Assembly: GCA_903894565.1 (NCBI GenBank) | Contig: CAITQP010000005.1 | Span: 28,971-92,970, forward strand | DNA: 64,000 bases | From: an uncultured bacterium | Lineage (GTDB): Bacteria; Patescibacteriota; Minisyncoccia; Phycocordibacterales; UBA9973 | Direction of reading: 5' to 3' | Part shown: positions 484 to 63,809 of the stretch, piece by piece | How the letters are laid out: each line of letters starts with the position of its first letter | Numbering within the stretch: the stretch's first letter is position 1 | Made by a program: the position numbers and the translations under genes | Notes under the pieces: model-generated | What the model saw: the letters and a program-made list of their open reading frames with translations, nothing else | Database searches by the model: none | Told to the model about the DNA's origin: nothing

Positions 484-2232
484 TTAGTTTAACGTCCTTT
501 CTTCAATTTCTTTTTCGAGGCGTGCTACAAATTCTTCAGGAGAGATATTTTCGATTTTTTCTGCGCGGGTCTCGACGGTGAGTACATTTGCATCGCGTTC
601 TTTGTCTCCAATAACAATGACGTAGGGAGTCTTCATGTTCTTGGCTTCGCGGATGCGCTTGCCCATTGAGTCCTTGCCATCATCGAGTTTTACGCGAATG
701 TTTTTTGCTTTCAACATTGCGTAAACTTTGTTTGCATATTCCTCATGAACATCTTTGATCGGCACGATGACGACTTGTGTTGGCGAAAGCCAAACAGGGA
801 AATTCCCAGCGAGGTGCTCGATGAGTGTACTCATAAAGCGTTCGATTGATCCCATGATGGCTGCGTGGATCATCACAACTTGTTCCTTTTCACCTTTTTC
901 ATTGATACAGGTGAGTTTGAAATTCTTTGGCTGATTGAAATCGAGCTGGATTGTGGCGACTTGGAGTACTCGTCCGATTGAGTCGCGAGAAATGAAGTCA
1001 ATTTTTGGTCCATAGAATGCTGCCTCACCAATACCATCAATCCATGTCACGTTGCGTGATTCCATGAGTTTTTGGAGCGCGTCCTCAGCTTTTTTCCAGA
1101 CGTCTGCGCCTCCGAGGTATTTTTCTGGTGTTGCTGGGTCGTGGCGAGAAAAGCGTACTTGGAGTTTAAACCCAAACGTATTGTAGAATGTTTCGATGAT
1201 GTCCCAGATGGCGAGTGCTTCTTGTTCAATCTGAATTTCACGACAGAATACGTGTGCGTCATCTTGGGTGATTGAGAGCACGCGTGAGAGTCCTGAGAGC
1301 TCACCAGACTGTTCGTCACGGTAGACCATCGTAGTCTCAGCATAACGCTGAGGCATATCACGGTAACTGCGAAGTTCGCTATCAAAAATTTGTGTATGAT
1401 GCGGACAGTTCATTGGCTTCATCGCGTAGAGGTGATCTTCGCGTGTATGAATCTTGAAGAGGTCATCGGCGTATTTTGCCCAATGGCCACTTGTTTCATA
1501 GAGTTCTTTTTTTGTGATGTGTGGAATTGTAACTTTTTCATATCCACGATCTTTACGAAGACTCCAGACATAGTCATTGAGTGCTTCACGGATCAGTGTG
1601 CCACGTGGGGTCCAAAGAGGGAGTCCTGGACCAACGAGTTCGGAGAATACGAAGAGGCCAAGCTCTTTGCCGAGTTTGCGGTGGTCTCGTTTCTTGGCTT
1701 CTTCTTGTTGTGTGATGTATGCGTCGAGTTCCTCTTTGGTGCTAAAAGCAAGACCATAAATGCGAGTGAGCATTTTGTTTTTCTCATCACCACGCCAATA
1801 TGCACCAGCAACGTGATCGAGTTTGAATGCATCAGCGGAAATTTCTTGACTTGGATTTTCTGAGTGACCTCCACGACAAAGGTCTTCAAAACCGCCACAG
1901 GTATAGAGTGTAATTTTCTCACCACGTCCGGCAATCTCTTCTATAAGTTCAAGTTTGTATTCGTTGCCGGCGAAGACTGTGCGTGCTTCCTCCGGACTTA
2001 CTTCGCGGTGCGTAAAAGCTGTCCATTTTGAAAGATTTTTTCGCATGGATTTTTGGAGATCTTTGAGGTTTTCGTCACTTACTTTATCATTGCCAAAATC
2101 GATGTCGTAATAGAAACCATTGTCGACAGCGGGTCCGAGAGTCAATTTTGCGCTTGGATATTGGTCTTTTACCGCTTGGGCGAGTAGGTGCGCAAGTGTA
2201 TGGCGGGCATGGGCGAGTTGTTCTTGGTTCAT
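484..2232 (-). CDS. thrS: Threonyl-tRNA synthetase (lacks N-terminal TGS/N1 domain)
   Basis: 582 aa with class II aaRS motifs and a ThrRS catalytic plus anticodon-binding region. Stop TAA. Confidence 0.9.
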   Translation of the reverse strand: MNQEQLAHARHTLAHLLAQAVKDQYPSAKLTLGPAVDNGFYYDIDFGNDKVSDENLKDLQKSMRKNLSKWTAFTHREVSPEEARTVFAGNEYKLELIEEIAGRGEKITLYTCGGFEDLCRGGHSENPSQEISADAFKLDHVAGAYWRGDEKNKMLTRIYGLAFSTKEELDAYITQQEEAKKRDHRKLGKELGLFVFSELVGPGLPLWTPRGTLIREALNDYVWSLRKDRGYEKVTIPHITKKELYETSGHWAKYADDLFKIHTREDHLYAMKPMNCPHHTQIFDSELRSYRDMPQRYAETTMVYRDEQSGELSGLSRVLSITQDDAHVFCREIQIEQEALAIWDIIETFYNTFGFKLQVRFSRHDPATPEKYLGGADVWKKAEDALQKLMESRNVTWIDGIGEAAFYGPKIDFISRDSIGRVLQVATIQLDFNQPKNFKLTCINEKGEKEQVVMIHAAIMGSIERFMSTLIEHLAGNFPVWLSPTQVVIVPIKDVHEEYANKVYAMLKAKNIRVKLDDGKDSMGKRIREAKNMKTPYVIVIGDKERDANVLTVETRAEKIENISPEEFVARLEKEIEERTLN

Positions 2233-2480: not shown

Positions 2481-5400
2481 TTATACAGCCTTGGCTTTTT
2501 CGATAACGAGACTCTTTTCGCCGTTGCGCTCGCTCACGCGAGCTTGTACTGCAACGACCGTATCAACCAAAAGAATATTTTGTAGTTCCGCGAACGCTTT
2601 GGTGAAGAGGACACCTTCAATTGAGCTTGTGAGATCGCCGACTTTGATGAATGCCATTTGTTCATTCTTCTTTGTGAAGATAACTTTCACCTCTTCGACG
2701 ATACAGGCGAACGTGACAGGGAAGCCAGGCTTCACTTCGTCGCGAATTTTCTTGATGGTCATGCCACTTTTTTCGATGCGATCACGGATGCGTTCGAGTG
2801 GATGTCCGGATACATACAATCCGAGCAATTCTTTTTCCCATTTCAATTTTTCAATTGTTTCAGCTTTTGGAGCTGGTGCGAGGGTGAGCGAGAGCGATTG
2901 AGTGGGGAGATCTCCAAACAGTGAGACTTGTGATCCAATATTTTGACGTTCTTTGTTGTATGCGAGCATGATTTCCATGTTGGCGAGCAGTTGTCCTCGT
3001 TCGCCGAAATGATCGAAGGCTCCGGCTTTGATGAGCGCCTCCATTGATTTCTTGTTGAGATTTTTGTGTGTGATGCGTTCGAGGAATTCAGTTACCGATT
3101 TGAAATCGCCACGCAGTCTGCGTTCTTCGATGATGGCGTTTGCGATATCTGCACCGAAGTTTTTGATGGTAAGCAAGCCGAAACGAATGATGCCTTCACC
3201 GGAGACATTTGAATTGTTGACCACAGTGAAGTCGGCGAAGCTCGCATTGATTTCTGGAGGGAGAACAGTGATGCCCATTTTGACGGCCTCGTTGATTATT
3301 TCGGCGACCTTCTCTGTGTCACCTGACTCGGCCGTCAAAATCGCACACAAATATTCCACAGGGAAATTCGCCTTCATATACGCCGTCTGATATGCCACGC
3401 GTCCATACGAAGCGGCGTGCGCCTTGTTGAATCCGTACGCTGCGAATGGTTCGATGAGAGCCCAGAGTTCCTGTGCTTTTTTTTCTGTGAGACCGTGCTC
3501 AACAAAACCTTCGAGCAAATGTTTTTTCTGCGCTTCCATTTCGGCTGGAATTTTTTTCCCCATTGCCTTACGGAGTTTGTCGGCTTCAAGCCATGAATAT
3601 CCGGCGAGCTTAATCGCAATCATCATGACGTCGTCCTGATACGTGATGACTCCGTATGATTGATCGAGAATATCTTTCATTCGTGGATCGAGATATCGCA
3701 CGAGTGATGGATTTTCTTTACGTTCAATATATTGTGGAATCATTTCCATCGGACCTGGGCGATACAGTGCGACCATGGCATTGATGTCGTGAATCGTTGT
3801 TGGTTTGAGTTGCTTGAGGTATGCAGTCATACCCGAGCCATTGAGCTGGAAGAGCCCCATCGTTTCTCCACGTGCGAGGATTTCAAATGTGCGTGCATCT
3901 TCGAGGGGAACTTTGTCGAGGTTCACATCAATATCACGAAGCTCCTTTACGAGACGCACAGCATCAGCGAGAATGGCAAGGTTGCGAATACCGAGGAAGT
4001 CGAATTTTGGCAGGCCCACATCTTCGATGTAGTGCATGTCATATTGAGTGATGATTGAACCACCTTTTGGATCAAACTGCACAGGTGCAAATTCGTAGAG
4101 TGGTTTTGGCGCGATAACGACACCTGCAGCATGAACAGACACGTGGCGTACACAGCCTTCGAGTTTGAGGGCGAGATCGATGATGTGCTTGGTGTCAGCT
4201 TCTTTTTTGTATGCATCAGCAAGTTCTGGAATGAGTTCCATCGCGTGCGTAATTGTCATAGGGAATCCCTGCGAGCCCATTGGAATGAGAGCCGAAATTC
4301 GGTCGCCAATCGCATACGGATATCCGAGTGCGCGGGCTACGTCACGCACTGAACCTTTGGCCATCATCGTTCCGAATGTTCCAATTTGCGCGACACGATC
4401 TTCACCATAGCGACGCTTGGCGTATTCAATCATTTCACCACGTCGGTTATCGGCGTAGTCCATATCAATATCGGGAAGCGACGGACGCTCTGGGTTGAGG
4501 AAACGTTCAAACGGAAGTTTGTATACGAGCGGATCAACGTTCGTAATTCCGATCAGATATGTCGTGAGCGATCCCGCGACCGATCCTCGAATATTTGTGA
4601 GAATACCGTTTTCACGCGCGAATTTGAGCAAGTCTCCCACGACGAGGAAGTATCCTGCGTAGCCTTTTTGTTTGATGACACTGAGCTCGTATTCGAGACG
4701 ATCGAGATATGGTTTCGTTTGTTCGAGATCGCGAAAAGCGAAACCGTCGTATGACAGTTCGCGTAATTTCATGTCCGCCGTAATTCCTTCAGGAAGGGGA
4801 AATTCAGGGAAGTAGGCGACACCGAGTTCAATCTCGTAATTCTCGCATAGGTCTGCGACTTTGGATGTGTTTGCAACAGCTTCGGGAATATCTGAAAAAT
4901 ATTCGAGCGCGGTTTTTTCATCGATGAGCGAAAAGTCGTCGTCAGGGAATTCAAATTTGCCCGTGTTGCCATCACCTTGTGTGTTGATTGCAAGGAGCGT
5001 GTGATGTGCCTCGTGGTCGTCACGACATGGATAGTGTGAGTCTTGTGTTGCGACGATAGTGACGTCGTGTTTTCGTGCAAGCTCAATGAGACGCTCGCGC
5101 ACGAGTTTGTCGTTTTCAATATGTGGATGGCTTTGTACTTCGATGAAATAATTTTCTTTGCCGAAGATGTCGAGGTGCTCGCGAACGATATCATCCGCTT
5201 TATCCATATCGTTCGCGAGCACTGCCTGCGAAAGTTCTCCGCCGAGACACGCCGAAAGACACACGATACCTTCGTGATATTTTCGCAAGATTTCTTTGTC
5301 CATGCGTGGCTTGTAGTAATAGCCTTCGAGGTTTGCAATCGTGACGAGACGAATGAGATTTTTGTATCCTTGCAGATTTTTGGCGAGGAGGATGAGGTGA

Positions 5401-7687: not shown

Positions 7688-8398
7688 ATGCCTGAAAAAT
7701 TATCACGTGAATGGGAGACCTTTGAAAAGACTATTGGCGTAAGTTTTAAAAACCGCGACCTGCTTACGCAGGCGTTCATTCATCGTTCTTTTTTAAACGA
7801 GAACCCACGTACTGGTATTGAACACAACGAACGTCTCGAATTTCTTGGTGATGCAGTTCTTGAGCTTGCTGTTACTGATTATTTGTATCGAACATACCCA
7901 GAAAGTCCAGAAGGTGAGCTTACGTCATATCGCGCCGCACTCGTGAACGCAAATACGATGGCTGATTTTGCAAATGAGATCAACATGAATGAGTATTTGT
8001 TCCTTTCACGAGGAGAAGCCAAAGATACCGGCAAGGCACGTTTGTACATTCTCGCGAACGCGATTGAAGCACTCATTGGTGCACTCTACCTCGATCAGGG
8101 ATATGATGTCGCAGAGCAATTCATCGATCGATTTCTCTACAAGCGTGCTGCTGACGTGGTCAAAATGAAATTGTGGCGCGATTCGAAAAGTCTTGTGCAA
8201 GAAAAAGCTCAAGAGCACGTAAACGTGACGCCGAGCTATAAAGTCGTTCGGGAGACAGGTCCAGATCACGACAAGCATTTTACGATTGGTATTTTCTTTG
8301 GTGAAGAAAAAATTGCCGAGGGTCGAGGACACTCCAAACAGGAAGCAGAACAGGATGCTGCACGTGCAGCCCTTGTAGCAAAACACTGGCTCGATTAG
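7688..8398 (+). CDS. rnc: Ribonuclease III
   Basis: ERLEFLGDAVLEL RNase III signature plus C-terminal dsRBD. Stop TAG. Confidence 0.9.
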   Translation: MPEKLSREWETFEKTIGVSFKNRDLLTQAFIHRSFLNENPRTGIEHNERLEFLGDAVLELAVTDYLYRTYPESPEGELTSYRAALVNANTMADFANEINMNEYLFLSRGEAKDTGKARLYILANAIEALIGALYLDQGYDVAEQFIDRFLYKRAADVVKMKLWRDSKSLVQEKAQEHVNVTPSYKVVRETGPDHDKHFTIGIFFGEEKIAEGRGHSKQEAEQDAARAALVAKHWLD

Positions 8399-10660: not shown

Positions 10661-11698
10661 TTACTTTGTGCTGAGCGAAGGAGCGTAGTTTGAATCGAGA
10701 ATAGTTTCATGAGGCGTCACATCAGTGACGTTTTTTCCTGTGAGCGTTGCGGTGACATAGAGACCATGCGTTGTGTTCGTAGAGAACGGTTGATCGAAGA
10801 TGAAGTTTCCGAGACTGTAGAGGATCGGTGCGCCGTTGTATGCGGCGATATCCTCAGCGACATGAGGATGCGCTCCGACAATCATAACTGCGCCATCATC
10901 AATCGCTTTTTGGGCGAGTGTTTCTTGGCGTGCATTGTGTTTGGTTTGATACTCAACACCAAAGTGGAATGAGACAATCAGTGAGTCGACTTTGGTCGAA
11001 GCCGTGCGTACGATCGAATCGAAATCTGGATCGTTTGCAAGGAGTACGCCAGCCTTTGTGTCTGTTGCAGCACCATCGTCTGGTCCAACATCAGTAAAGC
11101 ACAAGAACCCAACAGTGCGGTCTCCTTTGGTAAAGATTGCTGGAGTCTCTGCTTCTGTTTTGTTCATACCAATACCACATGTTTGTATTCCTCCCGCGCG
11201 AAGTCGCTCGAGTGTATCGACAAGTGCGGGCTCGCCCCAATCTTTGATGTGATTGTTTGCTGATGAGACAACATCGACGCCCGCATCTTTGAGTATGGAA
11301 ACAACTTTTGGATCCATACGGAATGAATACAAGTTGTGACGATCTGCACCGACGTCGCTCACAGGACCTTCGAGGTTTGCAAAAGTAATATCTGTATCTT
11401 TGAGAAAACTGGCATTCGCAAATAGTTTGGAATAATCACCATCAAGATTTTTGTTTACTTTAAACTTTACACCACGGTCGAGCATGATATCTCCGACCAT
11501 ACCGATAGTGATTGAAGTTGGCGCGGGGAGTGATGGAACAAGATTTTGTTGTGTCGCAATAACTGCAGCGGCTTGGTTTAGATCGTTTGTGGCAGGAAAA
11601 GAGAATTGGATATGTTCAAAACCACGCCCTAAAAAGCCTGCGGACAGACCGAGGAAAAGTAATCCAAACAAAAGTTGTTTATCCTTGTACGACTTCAT
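10661..11698 (-). CDS. CapA-family (PGA-biosynthesis / metallophosphatase-like) membrane-anchored protein
   Basis: N-terminal TM anchor, then the CapA-like pattern (MVGDIMLDRGV..., SSANNHIKDWG, GAHPHV). Start taken at MKSYKDK. Confidence 0.7.
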   Translation of the reverse strand: MKSYKDKQLLFGLLFLGLSAGFLGRGFEHIQFSFPATNDLNQAAAVIATQQNLVPSLPAPTSITIGMVGDIMLDRGVKFKVNKNLDGDYSKLFANASFLKDTDITFANLEGPVSDVGADRHNLYSFRMDPKVVSILKDAGVDVVSSANNHIKDWGEPALVDTLERLRAGGIQTCGIGMNKTEAETPAIFTKGDRTVGFLCFTDVGPDDGAATDTKAGVLLANDPDFDSIVRTASTKVDSLIVSFHFGVEYQTKHNARQETLAQKAIDDGAVMIVGAHPHVAEDIAAYNGAPILYSLGNFIFDQPFSTNTTHGLYVTATLTGKNVTDVTPHETILDSNYAPSLSTK

Positions 11699-13763
11699 AG
11701 TCAATCTGTCGGCGCTCTGGATCAGCACGAACGATTTTCACTTGTATTGTATCACCAATTCGATATTTTTTTTGCGAAATTTGTCCGGTCAATGTAGCGA
11801 GTCGAGGATTGAGACTGAATGGTTCATTCGCAAGTGTGCGAAGAGAGATGAGGCCTTCAGCTGTGGTCTCCTTGTCTCGTACATAGATGCCCCATTCAGC
11901 GATACCGGTAATCATTCCAGTAATTGTTTCGCCAACTTTTGTTGCCATGTATTCAGTGAGTTTGAATTTTACACTCTCGCGTTCTGCGTCAGCTGCGCGC
12001 ACTTCTGCCATCGAACACAGTCGCGCTACGCGCTCGTACGTCTTGCGTGCATTTGCAGGAGCTGGTTTGCCTGCGAGTGCATAGCGGAGCAAGCGATGAA
12101 TGACGAGGTCAGGATAGCGACGAATTGGGGAAGTAAAATGCGTGTAGTGTTTGAATTGCAAACCGTAGTGACCAATATTTTTGGTTGTGTACACAGCTTT
12201 GGCCATGGAACGAATCACAAAAGTGAGCGCGGTTTGTTTCAAGTCACCAGCTTCGAATGCATGAATGACATCACTGATCGCGCGAGGATCGAGCGATCCA
12301 TCTTTGCGGAGCGGAATCGGGTGACCGATTGAGCGCATGAAGAAGGCGAGGTCCTCGGCCTTTTCTGTTGTTGGCTGGTCGTGTGTTCGGTAGATGACAG
12401 AGTATTCACATTCGCCGTTCGGATTTGGTTTTCCTCCAGCTTTTTTAGATTTGCCACCACGCTCGAGGAATTCGGCGATGCGACGATTGGCAAGGAGCAT
12501 GAGCTCTTCAATCAATGTGTGACTTTCGGTGCGGATTTTTTTTACAATTTTGATTGGCTTGCCCGTCTCATCAATGATGACTTTGATTTCTTCTTGTTCG
12601 AGGATGAGTGCGCCTTCGTCGATACGTCCTTTGCCAAGCTTGCGTGCGATGCCGGCTGCAATCATTACTTCCTCGCGGAATTTGTGCGGTGCGCCATCAA
12701 GGACTTCTTGAGCTGATTCATACGTGAAGCGTTGTGCAGAATGAATGACGGTTGGTCCAAACCACGCGCCTTTTTCTTCGCCATCTGGTCCGAAGGTAAC
12801 GACGGCACTCATCGTGAGGCGGTCAACATCGGGAAGCAGGGAACACAAGTCGTCAGAGAGTACGCGTGGGAGCATTGGGATCGTGCGGTCGACGAGATAC
12901 ACAGACGTGCCACGTTCTATCGCTTCACGATCAAGTTCAGTTTTGGGCTGTACGTAATGCGAAACGTCGGCAATATGAATTCCGATTTCGACGTCACCGT
13001 TTGCAAGTTTCTCAACGGAAATTGCGTCGTCAAAATCTTTTGCATCGTATGGATCAATCGTGAATGTTACAATCTTGCGAAAATCACGACGATCGCGGAG
13101 GTCGTCGAGGGTTATACCACGCGCGTCGATAGCTTTTGCTTCGACGAGAACTTCGTCAGGAAATGCTTCGGTGAATCCGCGCTCAAGTGCAATGGCCTGC
13201 ATTTCTGTTTCGTGTTCACCTGGTTTGCCGAGGAGACGAACGACGCGACCAATCGGCGCAACATTTTGATTTTTCCATTCAGTCATTTCGACATACACAC
13301 GATCTCCCGGACGCGCATCAAGTGCCATGTCTTTTTGGATCGAAATATTTGCGTACATTTTTGGATCGGAAGCTTTGAGGATGTATGAATTGCCGAGTTG
13401 CGCGAGTACGCCAGTGAATTGTGTTTTGGCACGCATTACGATCTCGGTAATTCGACCGATGGTTTCTTTGGTAGGAGCACCTGTCGTGATTGATGGGCGA
13501 GTGGCTTTTGATCCCGTCACAACGACTTTGACTTCGTCGCCATGGAGTGCCATATTCATGTCGTTTTCAAACACACGAATGCCATCTTTGTATTCTTCGC
13601 ATTTGACGATACCACCTCCGCGACCAAGTACGACGAGCGTACCCTCAATGATTTTCTGAGGTCGGGCATGGTTCTTTGTTTGCGTTTTGTTTTCGTGAGA
13701 GGCTCGAGCGGAATGGTGCGGACGAGGGGCGTGCTTGTCTCCGCCTTGATGAGGTTTTTTCAT
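11679..13763 (-). CDS. rnr: Ribonuclease R (RNB-family 3'-5' exoribonuclease)
   Basis: RNB catalytic region, C-terminal S1 domain, His/Lys-rich basic N-terminal tail. Stop TAA. Confidence 0.85.
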   Translation of the reverse strand: MKKPHQGGDKHAPRPHHSARASHENKTQTKNHARPQKIIEGTLVVLGRGGGIVKCEEYKDGIRVFENDMNMALHGDEVKVVVTGSKATRPSITTGAPTKETIGRITEIVMRAKTQFTGVLAQLGNSYILKASDPKMYANISIQKDMALDARPGDRVYVEMTEWKNQNVAPIGRVVRLLGKPGEHETEMQAIALERGFTEAFPDEVLVEAKAIDARGITLDDLRDRRDFRKIVTFTIDPYDAKDFDDAISVEKLANGDVEIGIHIADVSHYVQPKTELDREAIERGTSVYLVDRTIPMLPRVLSDDLCSLLPDVDRLTMSAVVTFGPDGEEKGAWFGPTVIHSAQRFTYESAQEVLDGAPHKFREEVMIAAGIARKLGKGRIDEGALILEQEEIKVIIDETGKPIKIVKKIRTESHTLIEELMLLANRRIAEFLERGGKSKKAGGKPNPNGECEYSVIYRTHDQPTTEKAEDLAFFMRSIGHPIPLRKDGSLDPRAISDVIHAFEAGDLKQTALTFVIRSMAKAVYTTKNIGHYGLQFKHYTHFTSPIRRYPDLVIHRLLRYALAGKPAPANARKTYERVARLCSMAEVRAADAERESVKFKLTEYMATKVGETITGMITGIAEWGIYVRDKETTAEGLISLRTLANEPFSLNPRLATLTGQISQKKYRIGDTIQVKIVRADPERRQIDYEVVQG

Positions 13764-13844: not shown

Positions 13845-14150
13845 ATGTTAATGATCCGAATGCAACGAATAGGTCGCAAGAACGAGGCGCATTTCCGCAT
13901 CGTTTTGACCGATCACAAGAACGCAGCAAAGTCTGGTAAATTCCAGGAGATTCTTGGTGCCTACAACCCAAAGGCTGGGGAGGTCACTATCAAAGAAGAT
14001 CGTGTAAAGCACTGGATGAGTGTTGGTGCTCAGCCATCTGACACTGTTTATAACTTCCTCGTCACAAAGGGTATCGTTGTCGGAAAGAAAAAGAACGTAC
14101 TCTCACGCAAGGCTCCAACTAAGAAGCGCAAAGAACTCAAAGCTGCGTAA
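13845..14150 (+). CDS. rpsP: 30S ribosomal protein S16
   Basis: MIRMQRIGRKNEAHFRIVLTDHKNAAKSGKFQEILGAYNP... canonical S16. Confidence 0.9.
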   Translation: MLMIRMQRIGRKNEAHFRIVLTDHKNAAKSGKFQEILGAYNPKAGEVTIKEDRVKHWMSVGAQPSDTVYNFLVTKGIVVGKKKNVLSRKAPTKKRKELKAA

Positions 14151-14164
14151 TTGTAACGCAGTGT

Positions 14165-14247
14165 GGGCGCGAAAAAAATAAAGGTACTAAAAAACACGGT
14201 CGACCCATTCCTCCGTGTTTTTTAGTACCTTTATTTTTTTCGCGCCC
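14165..14247. repeat. 35-bp perfect inverted repeat (hairpin) with a 13-nt spacer, between rpsP and the KH-protein gene
   Basis: GGGCGCGAAAAAAATAAAGGTACTAAAAAACACGG (14165-14199) and its exact reverse complement (14213-14247). Shares the core AAAAAACACGG...CCGTGTTTTTT with the terminator at 421-477. Confidence 0.85.
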
Positions 14248-14357
14248 AAACGACTTTCCAAAAATGCTGATGTGAGGTATTATGCTTCCTAAGCAGTAGG
14301 GTCGGAACTATTGCATAGTATATGTATTGCATTAACAGAATTTCAGTTTAGTACACC

Positions 14358-14669
14358 ATGGAACAGGATACAGCATTTCTTGAATACGTAGTAAAAGCAC
14401 TCGTCGACAACCCTAATGATGTGAAGATCGAGCGTACCGTCGATGAGATGGGCGTGCTCGTGAAGCTCACCGTCAACCCCGCAGATATGGGCAAGATCAT
14501 CGGCCGCCAAGGCAACACAGCTAAGGCTATCCGCACATTGCTCCGTGTCATCGGCATGAAGAATAATTCGCGCGTCAATTTGAAGATCAACGAACCAGAT
14601 GGCGGTACAAAAGCTGCTGGAATCGAAGAGACTTTTGATGAGGCAATGGCTGATTTGAAGAACATGTAG
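14358..14669 (+). CDS. KH-domain RNA-binding protein (YlqC/KhpA-like)
   Basis: GKIIGRQGNTAKAIRTLL KH motif. Located downstream of rpsP as in the rpsP-ylqC-rimM-trmD arrangement. Stop TAG. Confidence 0.8.
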   Translation: MEQDTAFLEYVVKALVDNPNDVKIERTVDEMGVLVKLTVNPADMGKIIGRQGNTAKAIRTLLRVIGMKNNSRVNLKINEPDGGTKAAGIEETFDEAMADLKNM

Positions 14670-16161: not shown

Positions 16162-16193
16162 AAAAAAGGCCGCGCGTACGCGCGGCCTTTTGT
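16162..16193 (+). terminator. Intrinsic terminator
   Basis: AAAAAAGGCCGCGCG-TA-CGCGCGGCCTTTT. Confidence 0.65.
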
Positions 16194-22297: not shown

Positions 22298-22996
22298 ATG
22301 CATTTCTACGTTATAACACTATTTCCCGAAGCCTTTGATTCATATCTCAATGAGTCAATCATTGGTCGTGCAATCAAAGAAAAACGGATCAAAGTCACGT
22401 TTGTAAATCCGCGAATGTTCGTCTCGGGCAAGAAGTACAAACGCGTATGGCCTGACGGCAACGTGTCACGCATCGTGGATGATCGTCCATTCGGTGGAGG
22501 CCCGGGAATGATTATCCGCGCGGAACCTGTCTTGAAAGCGGTTGAAAGTATTGCGAAGAAAATTGCAAAAAAAGAGAATCGAAAAACAAAAATCATTCAC
22601 TTCAGTCCGAGCGGAACAAAATTTACAACGAGCTACGCGAAAGCGACCGTGAAGAAATATACCGATGTCGTTATGCTGTGCGGACGATATGAGGGGATCG
22701 ATGCGCGTGTTGCGAAGATATTGAAAGCAGAAGATGTTTCAATTGGAGATTATGTGCTCACGGGAGGGGAGCTTCCAGCGATGGTGCTCATCGATTCGAT
22801 GGCGCGCCAAATCCCTGGCGTGCTCGGCACATTCGATTCGCTCGAAGAAGAGCGTGTCTCGTCGAGCGAATTCTATACTCGCCCAGAAGTGCTCGAATGG
22901 AAGAAAAAAAAATATGCAGTGCCACCCGTCCTCCTCTCAGGCGACCACAAGAAAATTGAAGCATGGAAAATGGAACACAATAAAAAAGAACCGTAA
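22298..22996 (+). CDS. trmD: tRNA (guanine37-N1)-methyltransferase
   Basis: MHFYVITLFPEAF... SPOUT/TrmD motifs, 232 aa. Confidence 0.9.
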   Translation: MHFYVITLFPEAFDSYLNESIIGRAIKEKRIKVTFVNPRMFVSGKKYKRVWPDGNVSRIVDDRPFGGGPGMIIRAEPVLKAVESIAKKIAKKENRKTKIIHFSPSGTKFTTSYAKATVKKYTDVVMLCGRYEGIDARVAKILKAEDVSIGDYVLTGGELPAMVLIDSMARQIPGVLGTFDSLEEERVSSSEFYTRPEVLEWKKKKYAVPPVLLSGDHKKIEAWKMEHNKKEP

Positions 22997-51369: not shown

Positions 51370-52416
51370 ATGTTTGAACGGGTCTACAACACATTCTCAA
51401 ACGACATCGGTATCGACCTTGGTACTGCCAATACGCTCGTGTACCTCAAGGGGCATGGGATTGTGATTAATGAACCTTCTGTCGTTGCGGTGAATCAAAA
51501 GACTGGACGCATTGTGGCTGTCGGGACTGAGGCGAAGAACATGCTCGGACGAACTCCAGGGCATATTCGTGCGGTGCGACCGATCATTGATGGCGTGATT
51601 TCGGATTTTGAGGTGACCGAGGAGATGCTTTCGTATTTGATTGCGAAGGCCGAAAAAATTTCGAAGAAATTTTTTCGGCCCCGTGTCGTCGTCGGTGTCC
51701 CATCAGGAATCACCAATGTCGAAATTCGAGCCGTGTATGACGCGGCAAAATCTGCCGGAGCTCGCGAAGTATTCATTATCGAAGAACCAATGGCTGCAGC
51801 GATTGGCATTCGTCTCCCCGTCAAAGAACCAGTCGGTTCGATGATCGTTGATATTGGCGGAGGTACGACAGACATCGCTATCATTTCTCTTGGAGGAATT
51901 GTGCGAAGCAAGAATTCAAAAGTCGCTGGCGACAGACTCAACTCAGATATATCTTCATACCTTCGCGATGAATTCAAATTACTCATCGGAGAAAAGACTG
52001 CTGAGAATGTAAAAATTGCAATTGCGAGCGCGACGGAAGGCAAATTTCAAGAAGCTCAAGTTCGTGGACGCGATCTTGTCACAGGACTTCCACGTGAAGT
52101 TATCATAACTGATAGTGATATCCGTGAAGCGATCGCGCCTGCGGTGAATGAACTCGTTGATAGTATCAAAGAGGTACTCGAAACAACGCCACCAGAAATT
52201 CTCTCTGATGTAATGCATCGAGGCATTGTCCTCTCTGGTGGCGGAGCGCTTCTGACAGGCCTCGACTCACTGCTTGAAGGAGTGCTTAAAATTCCAATTT
52301 TCGTCGCAGAGGATCCGCTCACGGCTGTTGCTCGTGGTGCCGGCGTTGTGCTTGATGCAGTAGATGAATACGAAGAACAACTCGTGAGCTCGACGAACGA
52401 TCTGCCTCCACGATAG
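51370..52416 (+). CDS. mreB: Rod-shape-determining protein MreB
   Basis: IGIDLGTANTLVY..., actin-like ATPase motifs. Confidence 0.9.
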   Translation: MFERVYNTFSNDIGIDLGTANTLVYLKGHGIVINEPSVVAVNQKTGRIVAVGTEAKNMLGRTPGHIRAVRPIIDGVISDFEVTEEMLSYLIAKAEKISKKFFRPRVVVGVPSGITNVEIRAVYDAAKSAGAREVFIIEEPMAAAIGIRLPVKEPVGSMIVDIGGGTTDIAIISLGGIVRSKNSKVAGDRLNSDISSYLRDEFKLLIGEKTAENVKIAIASATEGKFQEAQVRGRDLVTGLPREVIITDSDIREAIAPAVNELVDSIKEVLETTPPEILSDVMHRGIVLSGGGALLTGLDSLLEGVLKIPIFVAEDPLTAVARGAGVVLDAVDEYEEQLVSSTNDLPPR

Positions 52417-60000: not shown

Positions 60001-60996
60001 TTATCGTACGACAAGCATATCGTGGTGATACATACTCCACTCTTTTTCAAAAAGTGATTGGCTTATTTCGAGACGTCCGTATTCAGGATCGTTGACGAGA
60101 AGTATCATTTCTCCATTTATTTTTGTTTTATATCCAACAATTACATTTACGTGTGTTGGGATAAAAGGAATTGTTTTACCGCTCGGTGATTGATAGGTGA
60201 GGAGTGTTTCGTGCGGGAGATCATCAAGTGACGCAGTCCACACAATCACAGGATTATTGGAATCGATTTCATGAGTTATTGATGCAATGGTATTTTGTGT
60301 TGTTGCTTCGCTATTCGGGCGGTATTTTTGTGCGACACTGAGGACTGGTTCTTTGTCTGCTCCCCATCCAGTTGCTCCGAGTGTGCCTAGGCTATTGAAA
60401 AACCAACCTCTGACGTCACCGACGAATCCGAGTGACGGATCGCCCCAAATGTACTGTCCGCTTGTTTGTTTTTGTTTTTGAAACGGAAGAGCTTGAGGAA
60501 TTTCTTTTATGATGTCATCTTGGTTTTTGATTACTCCTTTATACGCGAGTGCCATTTCAAGACTTGCTGCCTCGCACGACAGCGGATAGATTTGTTCAAA
60601 AAGGGGAACTGAAAGAACGTGGGTTACCTCGTCAATTTTTGTGAGTGAGAAATTTCCGTTGATGGTAAATTTTGAATCGGAGATCGGTGTGTTGGTATTT
60701 GCGGTTAATTCTGTATTCATCATGGCGCGCGTGAGCGCGCCAATAGTACCGGTTGGCTCCATTTCGTGGATCATTTGATACTGTAATACAGCTGATGTTG
60801 TGAGTGTCCCATATGTTCCTGTTGGAGAAGGAATAGCAAGAAGATTCTCCCGAATGAGAATAGTTTGAGCACTGATGATTGATTGCTGTGCAAAATGATA
60901 GGGAATACCTTGCCAGAGAGAATACACAACGCTCGCGTTTGCGCTACGCGCAAACGCGAGCGTGCAGAACACAATCACAATGAGAGTTCGACGCAT
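60001..60996 (-). CDS. Secreted protein: signal peptide, peptidoglycan-binding domain, C39-like cysteine peptidase domain
   Basis: MRRTLIVIVFCTLAFARSANA signal; PG_binding_1-like LTTSAVLQYQMIHEMEPTGTIGALT; C39-like region with catalytic-type Cys context (PLSCEAASLEMALAYKG) and downstream His. Confidence 0.6.
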   Translation of the reverse strand: MRRTLIVIVFCTLAFARSANASVVYSLWQGIPYHFAQQSIISAQTILIRENLLAIPSPTGTYGTLTTSAVLQYQMIHEMEPTGTIGALTRAMMNTELTANTNTPISDSKFTINGNFSLTKIDEVTHVLSVPLFEQIYPLSCEAASLEMALAYKGVIKNQDDIIKEIPQALPFQKQKQTSGQYIWGDPSLGFVGDVRGWFFNSLGTLGATGWGADKEPVLSVAQKYRPNSEATTQNTIASITHEIDSNNPVIVWTASLDDLPHETLLTYQSPSGKTIPFIPTHVNVIVGYKTKINGEMILLVNDPEYGRLEISQSLFEKEWSMYHHDMLVVR

Positions 60997-63765: not shown

Positions 63766-63809
63766 ACACGCAGTAAAAAAACGCCATTAGGCGTTTTTTT
63801 ACTGCGTGT
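63766..63809. terminator. Bidirectional intrinsic terminator between the pilin gene and tRNA-Ala
   Basis: ACACGCAGTAAAAAAACGCC-ATTA-GGCGTTTTTTTACTGCGTGT. Confidence 0.7.

Follow-up and report, generated by a model that had tools for sequence, protein, structure and literature searches.

Between rpsP, the gene for ribosomal protein S16, and a downstream KH-domain gene in the DNA studied here (64,000 nucleotides [nt] of contig CAITQP010000005.1 from an uncultured patescibacterium of the UBA9973 lineage, called the window throughout), there lies a perfect inverted repeat of 36 base pairs, which raises the question of what role so long a hairpin has and how its two arms have remained exactly complementary. 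Our analysis suggests that the hairpin is probably an unusually long, perfectly palindromic Rho-independent terminator of rpsP, in a family of such elements that probably evolves by hairpin-templated copying together with selection for pairing.

Structure and position of the rpsP hairpin

The left 35-mer of the repeat, GGGCGCGAAAAAAATAAAGGTACTAAAAAACACGG (14165-14199), is separated by a 13-nt loop from its exact reverse complement (14213-14247), just as the initial annotation of the locus had described, and one further pair, T14164:A14248, extends the perfect stem to 36 bp (14164-14199 with 14213-14248). The element begins 13 nt 3′ of the rpsP stop codon and ends 109 nt 5′ of the gene for a KH-domain (KhpA-like) protein; Pfam confirmed the identities of both genes, between which the annotation had placed it. 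Its parts are as follows.

14164-14199, unstranded: left arm of the palindrome, T + GGGCGCG + A7TA3 + GGTACT + A6 + CACGG, pairing perfectly with 14213-14248
14200-14212, unstranded: loop, TCGACCCATTCCT, reverse-complemented in the sister (GROS21) lineage
14213-14248, unstranded: right arm, the exact reverse complement of the left arm
14184-14228, unstranded: 45-nt centre, GTACTAAAAAACACGG + loop + CCGTGTTTTTTAGTAC, identical to the centre of the sister-lineage rpsT palindrome (L206, L208)
14218-14240, plus strand: nested T (U) tracts in the right arm, the proposed termination points
14131-14281, unstranded: imperfect palindromic halo, with 69-nt arms that are 81% complementary

As RNA, the 85-nt element is predicted to fold at -60 kcal/mol (z = -17 relative to shuffles) and a 181-nt context at -79.5 kcal/mol (z = -11.7), and the minimum free energy (MFE) and centroid folds of that context both contain the same 36-bp stem, as one dominant fold. 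The 35-mer occurred in none of the window shuffles, even when 3 mismatches were allowed. Because the identical hairpin sequence is found in L002 (a k141-named contig) and in L004 (a BUCK21 scaffold), which were assembled independently, the hairpin is real DNA, and an assembly artefact is ruled out. Assembly damage was seen at the hairpin in other contigs: N-gaps lie inside it in L006, L009 and L017, and L007 and L008 end in it. On L017 (380-440) the window-type left arm runs on as GGTACTAAAAA-GCCAAAAATAAAACCAGAAAAAATTTG before the N-gap, and the L007 contig breaks at the same base as this gap, which suggests that a third variant of the palindrome centre (GGTACTAAAAAGCCAAAAATAAAACC) is present in some populations.

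The sequence signals of an intrinsic terminator are nested within the right arm. The 5-bp inner stem is followed by T6 (14218-14223) and the 17-bp stem by TTTATTTTTTT (14230-14240), while the A-tracts at 14172-14182 and 14189-14194, their mirror images, would act in transcription of the minus strand. The same signals are present on the minus strand because the DNA is a perfect palindrome, and the 17-bp stem followed by U3AU7 has a predicted free energy of -27.3 kcal/mol on either strand. RNA polymerase moving along the plus strand would first make the weak inner hairpin CACGG/CCGUG, followed by U6, and next the 17-bp stem (GGUACU-A6-CACGG with its complement), followed by UUUAUUUUUUU (14230-14240), an arrangement that resembles a strong terminator. 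The outer A/U and GGGCGCG/CGCGCCC segments would close to the full 36-bp stem only in read-through RNA and, because the outer arms pair only there, termination does not explain their perfection.

Hairpins of this general design are common at gene ends in the window. Among its perfect hairpins with a stem of at least 11 bp (n = 15), nine have the order A-tract, stem, T-tract and start 0-19 nt past a stop codon (421, 14164, 16164, 18066, 22982, 38092, 41680, 47567 and 63766, with that at 22982 overlapping the stop), and they lie between convergent as well as co-directional genes. The stems of the others are 14-22 bp long, so that the rpsP hairpin, at 36 bp, is the longest and a clear outlier, in agreement with the annotation's remark that it far exceeds ordinary length. 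The hairpins at 16164, 18066 and 22982 are essentially conserved in sequence between the lineages that were compared at each of these sites, whose DNA is ~84-89% identical. Perfect inverted repeats of 15-17 bp also occur in or at the edge of coding regions, without A/T tracts, at 5175-5222 (in the DNA polymerase III alpha gene), 51648-51680 and 60929-60963.

Imperfect palindromy continues outside the rpsP stem as the halo listed above. In its outer 34 nt (14131-14164 versus 14248-14281), which span the conserved rpsP stop codon and the KH promoter, 21 of the 34 positions are paired by a count made by hand, whereas random 34-mer pairs gave a mean of 8.6 (sd 2.6) and a maximum of 21 in 200,000. 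Similar halos surround the palindrome in L001 (21/35) and the rpsT copy in L206 (18/35).

Palindromes in related lineages and at rpsT

Seven lineages were compared by means of contigs carrying an identical S16 or KH protein, together with close S16 homologues, and a perfect hairpin stands directly 3′ of rpsP in every related Paceibacteria lineage examined. The source organism itself falls within the Paceibacteria (Patescibacteria/CPR), judging by the source names of close homologues. The C-terminal residues of S16, KKRKELKAA before the stop, are kept in seven lineages. In the GROS21 lineage, the rpsP copy consists of GGGCGCAAAAAATAAAAGGTACTAAAAAACACGG, the loop AGGAATGGGTCGA and an exact complement of the left arm, again forming a perfect stem. 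Relative to the window arms, one G:C pair has been deleted and a T:A pair has shifted, each change being mirrored on the other arm; the two genomes are ~86-89% identical, yet both rpsP palindromes are perfect. Loop orientation tracks lineage, in that the window, L002 and L004 possess TCGACCCATTCCT and L001, L003 and L005 its reverse complement, AGGAATGGGTCGA, with collinear flanks in three independent window-type assemblies versus seven GROS21 assemblies.

More distant relatives indicate how the palindrome may have arisen. In L205, whose S16 is 83% identical, ACTAAAAAACACAG, 11 nt and CTGTGTTTTTTAGT followed by ACC form a 14-bp hairpin that is orthologous to the inner hairpin of the window and is without the outer 20 bp. 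L010 has a 15-bp hairpin with a left flank homologous to the window left arm, and a remnant of the right outer arm adjoins its KH promoter, with ~640 bp in between that include a 115-amino-acid (aa) open reading frame (ORF) on the minus strand. The perfect hairpins of L202 (21 bp), L203 (16 bp) and L204 (16 bp) are unrelated to that of the window. Because it is orthologous in the distant L205, the inner hairpin at rpsP is ancestral, not inserted, and the long outer arms are a later extension in the window/GROS21 clade; perhaps the outer arms were also present in the ancestor shared with L010.

A homologous palindrome follows rpsT, a locus reached in the sister lineage via RuvA. In GROS21 it reads rpsT-TAG...AAAATCGCAAAAACAAAATACGTACTAAAAAACACGG / TCGACCCATTCCT / CCGTGTTTTTTAGTACGTATTTTGTTTTTGCGATTTT, is perfect over 37 bp and precedes a thioredoxin-like gene. 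The rpsT and rpsP copies agree at every one of the central 45 nt, which comprise the loop and 16 nt of arm on each side; farther out, the arms are ~70-75% alike and locus-specific. When the rpsT element was aligned locally against the window, it scored 57 at the rpsP copy, 40 at 401-500, where the 421 hairpin lies, and at most 17 elsewhere, against a background of 8.8 ± 2.6 and scores of 7-17 at the other window terminators. The 421 arm differs from an rpsT-type arm at 2 of 23 positions, and no other site in 164 kb came within 4 mismatches. The rpsT copy of the L010 lineage (L212) has kept the arms around another loop, of 8 nt. Importantly, in an alignment of six members 93.4% of the stem cells are paired, and 15 of the 37 pairs have changed on both sides (4 vary on one side only), a level of double-sided change that was reached in 0 of 500 shuffles and for which slid controls gave 0-3. 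Several of the double changes are AU<->UA or CG<->GC swaps without a wobble intermediate. The palindromes thus constitute a real small family of homologous palindromic terminators at gene ends.

The initial annotation had already proposed a dispersed palindromic family, and this much of the proposal holds, owing to the rpsT palindrome and the score of the 421 hairpin; the ground that it gave does not. That ground was a core, AAAAAACACGG, which is indeed common to the rpsP hairpin and to the hairpin at 421-477, where the annotated 22-bp perfect stem was also found. There are three exact copies of the core in the window, of which the rpsP arms supply two, and six copies with 1 mismatch versus 2.3 expected, a count within the range of chance. 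The annotation had suggested searching the whole genome for copies, and the pattern AAAAAACACG-N5-25-CGTGTTTTTT gave at least 120 matches in 185,579 species genomes, which were ordinary terminator hairpins of unrelated phyla; among the matches listed were Bacillus, Vibrio, Bacteroidota, Clostridia and others, and none was the rpsP element. Beyond the 10-nt core AAAAAACACG, pairing extends for at most 8 bp in the 120 listed hairpins, as opposed to 25 bp at rpsP and 12 bp at 421-477, and the rpsP pairing runs 24 bp beyond the A6 tract itself. The 11-nt core is a generic terminator pattern, not a family signature, and is therefore uninformative about membership. A metagenome scan with TAAAAAACACGG-N11-15-CCGTGTTTTTTA gave 51 loci, all of them unrelated terminators; a pattern scan of viral_contigs (IMG/VR) with the loop and inner stem gave 0 matches; and BLAST of the element found no match in the phage record collection and only chance matches in the plasmid collection. 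Rfam at the gathering threshold reported two tRNAs only, and at E <= 10 only sub-threshold models of microRNA (miRNA) precursors, a generic response to long hairpins. No further family copies were found in ~100 kb of related loci with up to 4 mismatches, and the 64-kb window holds two.

Several other contigs bear on the rpsT copies. In the L016 scaffold (= L207; 9790-9900), rpsT runs directly into KH through the shared 45-nt centre, with a loop that differs by 1 nt; because the rpsT and rpsP palindromes share an identical centre, this scaffold is a chimera produced by assembly or else a genuine recombinant. The window-lineage contig L190 ends 31 nt after rpsT, within the terminator. On the minus strand of L212 (1494-1585), the post-stop sequence GGAGGAGG complements CTCCTCCTCC, made up of the 8-nt loop and the first part of the right arm, and so makes possible an alternative pairing that the other copies lack. 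After rpsT in L198 (3256-3375), arms of ~28 nt (GCAAAAACAAAAACACCCTTTTGAAAAG) surround a 57-nt centre and the outer arms are the same as in the GROS21 copy, whereas L193 (2160-2240) has a 24-bp perfect stem and L191 and L197 have short simple terminators at this place. The hairpin at 63766-63809, ACACGCAGTAAAAAAACGCC/atta/..., has an ACGCAG(T)-A6-7 module in common with the rpsP terminator of L010 (9300-9340) and the truncated rpsT terminator of L190. The window has 4 occurrences of ACG[CT]A[CG]N?AAAAAA, where 0.17 would be expected, all of them in hairpin arms (421, 63766), and there may be a wider, looser terminator family around the ACGCAG module.

Transcription of the KH gene and alternative roles of the hairpin

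Nine window ORFs were scanned with Pfam, and the features that matter for the function of the hairpin are these.

13845-14150, plus strand: rpsP (ribosomal protein S16; Pfam PF00886), the gene whose transcript the hairpin would end
14255-14283, plus strand: KH promoter-like motif, TTTCCA, 17 nt, TATTAT, at the same position in seven lineages
14358-14669, plus strand: KH-domain (KhpA-like) gene (Pfam PF13083)
7688-8398, plus strand: rnc, encoding an intact RNase III with its catalytic domains and double-stranded RNA-binding domain (dsRBD; Pfam PF14622, PF00636, PF00035), with a putative link to the hairpin
11679-13763, minus strand: RNase R (Pfam)
484-2232, minus strand: thrS, encoding threonyl-tRNA synthetase (ThrRS; Pfam)
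407-487, unstranded: second family member, a palindromic hairpin with a perfect stem at 421-477, between an 85-aa ORF (plus) and thrS (minus)

The hairpin at 421-477 can be read as a 22-bp perfect stem or as 26 bp at 96%. Its upstream neighbour had been annotated as gyrB; in fact the ORF at 164-421 specifies an 85-aa hydrophobic protein without a Pfam match, the last codons of which overlap the left arm, while ThrRS, downstream on the opposite strand, was identified correctly, as was the rnc gene.

The annotation also regarded rpsP and the KH gene as a normally co-transcribed unit, a description that does not fit this clade. In seven lineages the promoter-like motif of KH has been kept regardless of what precedes it, and other genes stand between rpsP and KH in three of them (L010, L202 and L205). 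It is therefore most likely that in this clade the rpsP transcript stops at the hairpin and that KH is transcribed separately, from a promoter of its own. The rpsP-KH spacer (window 14151-14357) is an insertion hot spot, and the insertions sit between the rpsP hairpin and the KH promoter: the 115-aa minus-strand ORF in L010 (9278-10000), which has no Pfam match, a YfbR-like minus-strand gene in L202 (1807-2794) and a toxin-antitoxin-like DUF4258 + DUF2283 pair in L205 (1807-2439). At the start of the KH 5′ untranslated region (UTR; 14293-14314, also in L001, L010 and L202-L205), there is a conserved GCAGTAG-GGTCGGAA-CTATTGC with an invariant GTCG.A. RNAalifold predicted only a weak 6-bp stem without double-sided covariation for this motif, which might bind a protein or act as a leader element of khpA.

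Termination at the hairpin would be in keeping with its location 13 nt past the rpsP stop, with the stable 17-bp stem and its U-tract, with the promoter-like motif ahead of KH and with the presence of hairpins at the corresponding site in six other lineages. How the arms evolved would be accounted for by template switching from one arm to the other (quasipalindrome correction), probably with conversion between copies, acting together with selection for pairing on a palindrome that grew outward from a 14-16-bp ancestral hairpin. That template switching converts quasipalindromes into perfect palindromes is established (PMC7202029), and inversions of 4-50 bp associated with hairpins are common in plastid DNA (PMC12371153). 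Templated copying would keep the arms perfect while their sequence changes, let them grow outward and flip the loop, and it could further be the source of the indels and transversions that appear in mirror image on both arms and of the centre that is the same at rpsP and rpsT.

A number of observations weigh against this reading. Termination is here deduced from sequence features. The inner hairpin, with 5 G/C-containing pairs and a 13-nt loop, is a poor terminator by itself, and the outer 19 bp are unneeded for termination and would be absent from terminated RNA, so that their perfection needs a second explanation. The genes are co-directional, a context in which a bidirectional design has no obvious use. 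A simple terminator scan does not list the rpsP hairpin, because the loop exceeds the 8-nt limit of that scan, which was not enriched over shuffles and was not used as evidence. The family is known from only three loci. In one arm of L003 there are four unmirrored substitutions, which are probably assembly errors, the strain being otherwise 99.7-100% identical to L001, and the L212 rpsT copy falls short of perfection by one G/T mismatch and a 4-nt indel that the other arm does not mirror. Finally, a loop flip within a lineage rests on a single contig end (L008), which carries a GROS arm with the window loop orientation and could be an assembly-graph path through the second copy.

Of the other explanations that we considered, the one with most in its favour is that the palindrome is a small non-autonomous mobile element (resembling miniature inverted-repeat transposable elements [MITEs], repetitive extragenic palindromic [REP] elements or Correia elements) that inserts at the 3′ ends of genes and terminates transcription only incidentally. 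Homologous palindromes do occur at three or more unlinked loci, the rpsP and rpsT centres are 100% identical over 45 nt as compared with ~70-75% for the outer arms, the rpsP-KH spacer attracts insertions, and lineages that have kept the outer arms of the rpsT palindrome (L198 versus L206) have different centres. We nevertheless consider mobility unlikely, and the annotation's assignment to a REP/MITE-like class is not supported: there are just two copies in 64 kb, and none besides in the ~100 kb of related loci when as many as 4 mismatches were allowed; the flanks, GCAGTGT / element / AAACGAC, contain no direct repeat that would represent a target-site duplication; and the GTAC at both ends of the 45-nt centre belongs to the palindrome itself. 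No gene for a transposase or REP-associated tyrosine transposase (RAYT) was noticed among the nine Pfam-scanned ORFs, the element is absent from the viral_contigs scan and from the phage and plasmid BLAST searches, and the inner hairpin occupies an orthologous site in distant L205. The palindrome centre differs in L010, L198, L205 and L212, and no autonomous element was seen at the loci compared.

Somewhat less probable still is that the main role of the hairpin would be that of an RNase III processing or decay site, where cutting of the 36-bp double-stranded RNA would uncouple or destabilise the rpsP and KH mRNAs. Bacterial RNase III requires roughly 20 bp of double-stranded RNA, a length that the 36-bp perfect duplex of -60 kcal/mol exceeds in the full transcript, with 17 bp or more available if transcription ends at the second U-tract. 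An intact rnc with its dsRBD is present in the window, which makes RNase III processing, also raised in the annotation, plausible; the outer arms are perfect though needless for termination, and there is a precedent in the Correia palindromic repeat, which is cleaved (PMC2649163). The full stem, however, would form only in RNA that has passed two U-tracts, KH has its own promoter-like motif, and a DNA-level process explains the perfection equally well. For the outer arms, templated copying and selection for an RNase III duplex are not exclusive of each other.

That the palindrome acts solely as DNA, as a cruciform or a site for a dimeric protein in recombination or replication, for example, is improbable. 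Its perfection does exceed the needs of an RNA function, the loop flip implies that it works in either orientation, a self-complementary octamer, GGTCGACC, lies in its centre, and imperfect palindromy reaches out to 69-nt arms; but there is no candidate protein, all family members stand at the positions expected of terminators and carry A/T tracts, and the loops are wholly different between members (L212, L205). The least plausible role, to which we give hardly any credence, is that of an attenuator or riboswitch-like regulator of KH expression, another of the annotation's suggestions. Such regulation would suit the location of the hairpin, whose two neighbouring genes share a transcript in many bacteria. 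No competing structure was found, as the MFE and centroid folds agree on the 36-bp stem, no Rfam family other than the sub-threshold miRNA-precursor models responded, and KH has a promoter-like motif of its own. In addition, the inversion of the loop from one lineage to another shows that its sequence is free of constraint as RNA, which argues against a strand-specific RNA function of the loop and hence against an attenuator or riboswitch.

Known systems and implications

Considered against known systems, the rpsP hairpin is not a new kind of element and most likely works like an intrinsic terminator of the bidirectional type. Such terminators typically show the architecture A-tract, hairpin, T-tract (Kingsford et al., PMC1852404), and the rpsP hairpin likewise forms a stem-loop between complementary A and T runs just past a stop codon. 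It departs from them in a stem of 36 bp instead of the usual 5-15, in U-tracts nested inside the stem, in perfect pairing and in its co-directional context. Uptake sequences, which number ~1,000 or more per genome, offer a case in which several terminators share stem sequence, as members of the present family do. In the DNA uptake sequences (DUS) of Neisseria and the uptake signal sequences (USS) of Pasteurellaceae, many terminator stems per genome share sequence for a reason other than termination (PMC1852404). In contrast, the 64-kb window holds two copies, and outside hairpins the arm motif shows no over-representation. There is no evidence for an uptake role in the window counts of the core given above (3 exact; 6 versus 2.3 expected at 1 mismatch).

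A looser resemblance is to small intergenic palindromic repeats that affect neighbouring transcripts, namely the Correia elements (CREE/NEMIS) and, less closely, REP/BIME, ERIC and RUP. Correia elements are 100-155 bp long, with 26-bp terminal repeats, a TA duplication, promoters and a site for integration host factor (IHF), and occur in hundreds of copies, whereas the rpsP element is 85 bp of one continuous palindrome without an internal core or TA duplication, and none of the Correia features listed was found in it. REPs, which are imperfect, are present in very large numbers and are associated with RAYT transposases and a conserved 5′ tetranucleotide; the tens to hundreds of copies that mark REP/BIME families contrast with the two in the 64-kb window and none further in ~100 kb. 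The inverted-repeat hairpins of Correia elements bind RNase III and are cleaved by it (PMC2649163).

For the proposed mode of evolution, the nearest parallels are mutational. In quasipalindrome correction, described in E. coli and yeast, one arm templates the other, a process that would give the mirrored substitutions and indels seen here (PMC7202029). It is known there from reporter genes as a mechanism of mutation, while its action on the present family is deduced from comparison. We know of no description of it as the way in which a terminator family evolves over the long term. The small hairpin-associated inversions of chloroplast DNA resemble the loop flips found between close relatives with collinear flanks (4-50 bp in chloroplasts, PMC12371153; 13 nt between 35-bp arms here). 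The present case differs in concerning a genome of the Patescibacteria, or candidate phyla radiation (CPR), in its longer and perfect arms, and in a second genomic copy that offers conversion as an alternative route.

We tentatively suggest, as a speculation that we regard as unlikely, that CPR genomes may hold self-perfecting palindromic terminator cassettes that lack a transposase, spread and homogenise between gene 3′ ends by templated copying or conversion in either orientation, and grow outward to the stop codon and the next promoter, with the outer arms kept as a fail-safe RNase III substrate in read-through RNA. Palindromes like that at rpsP break or mis-join metagenome assemblies and are thereby a source of chimeric contigs in metagenome-assembled genomes (MAGs). 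If the reading as a terminator family that evolves by templated copying is correct, the terminators of streamlined CPR genomes are not static signals but would form a small, concertedly evolving family, shaped by template switching at the DNA level as well as by RNA function, and would offer a comparative case from nature in which quasipalindrome correction and loop inversion act over bacterial evolutionary time.

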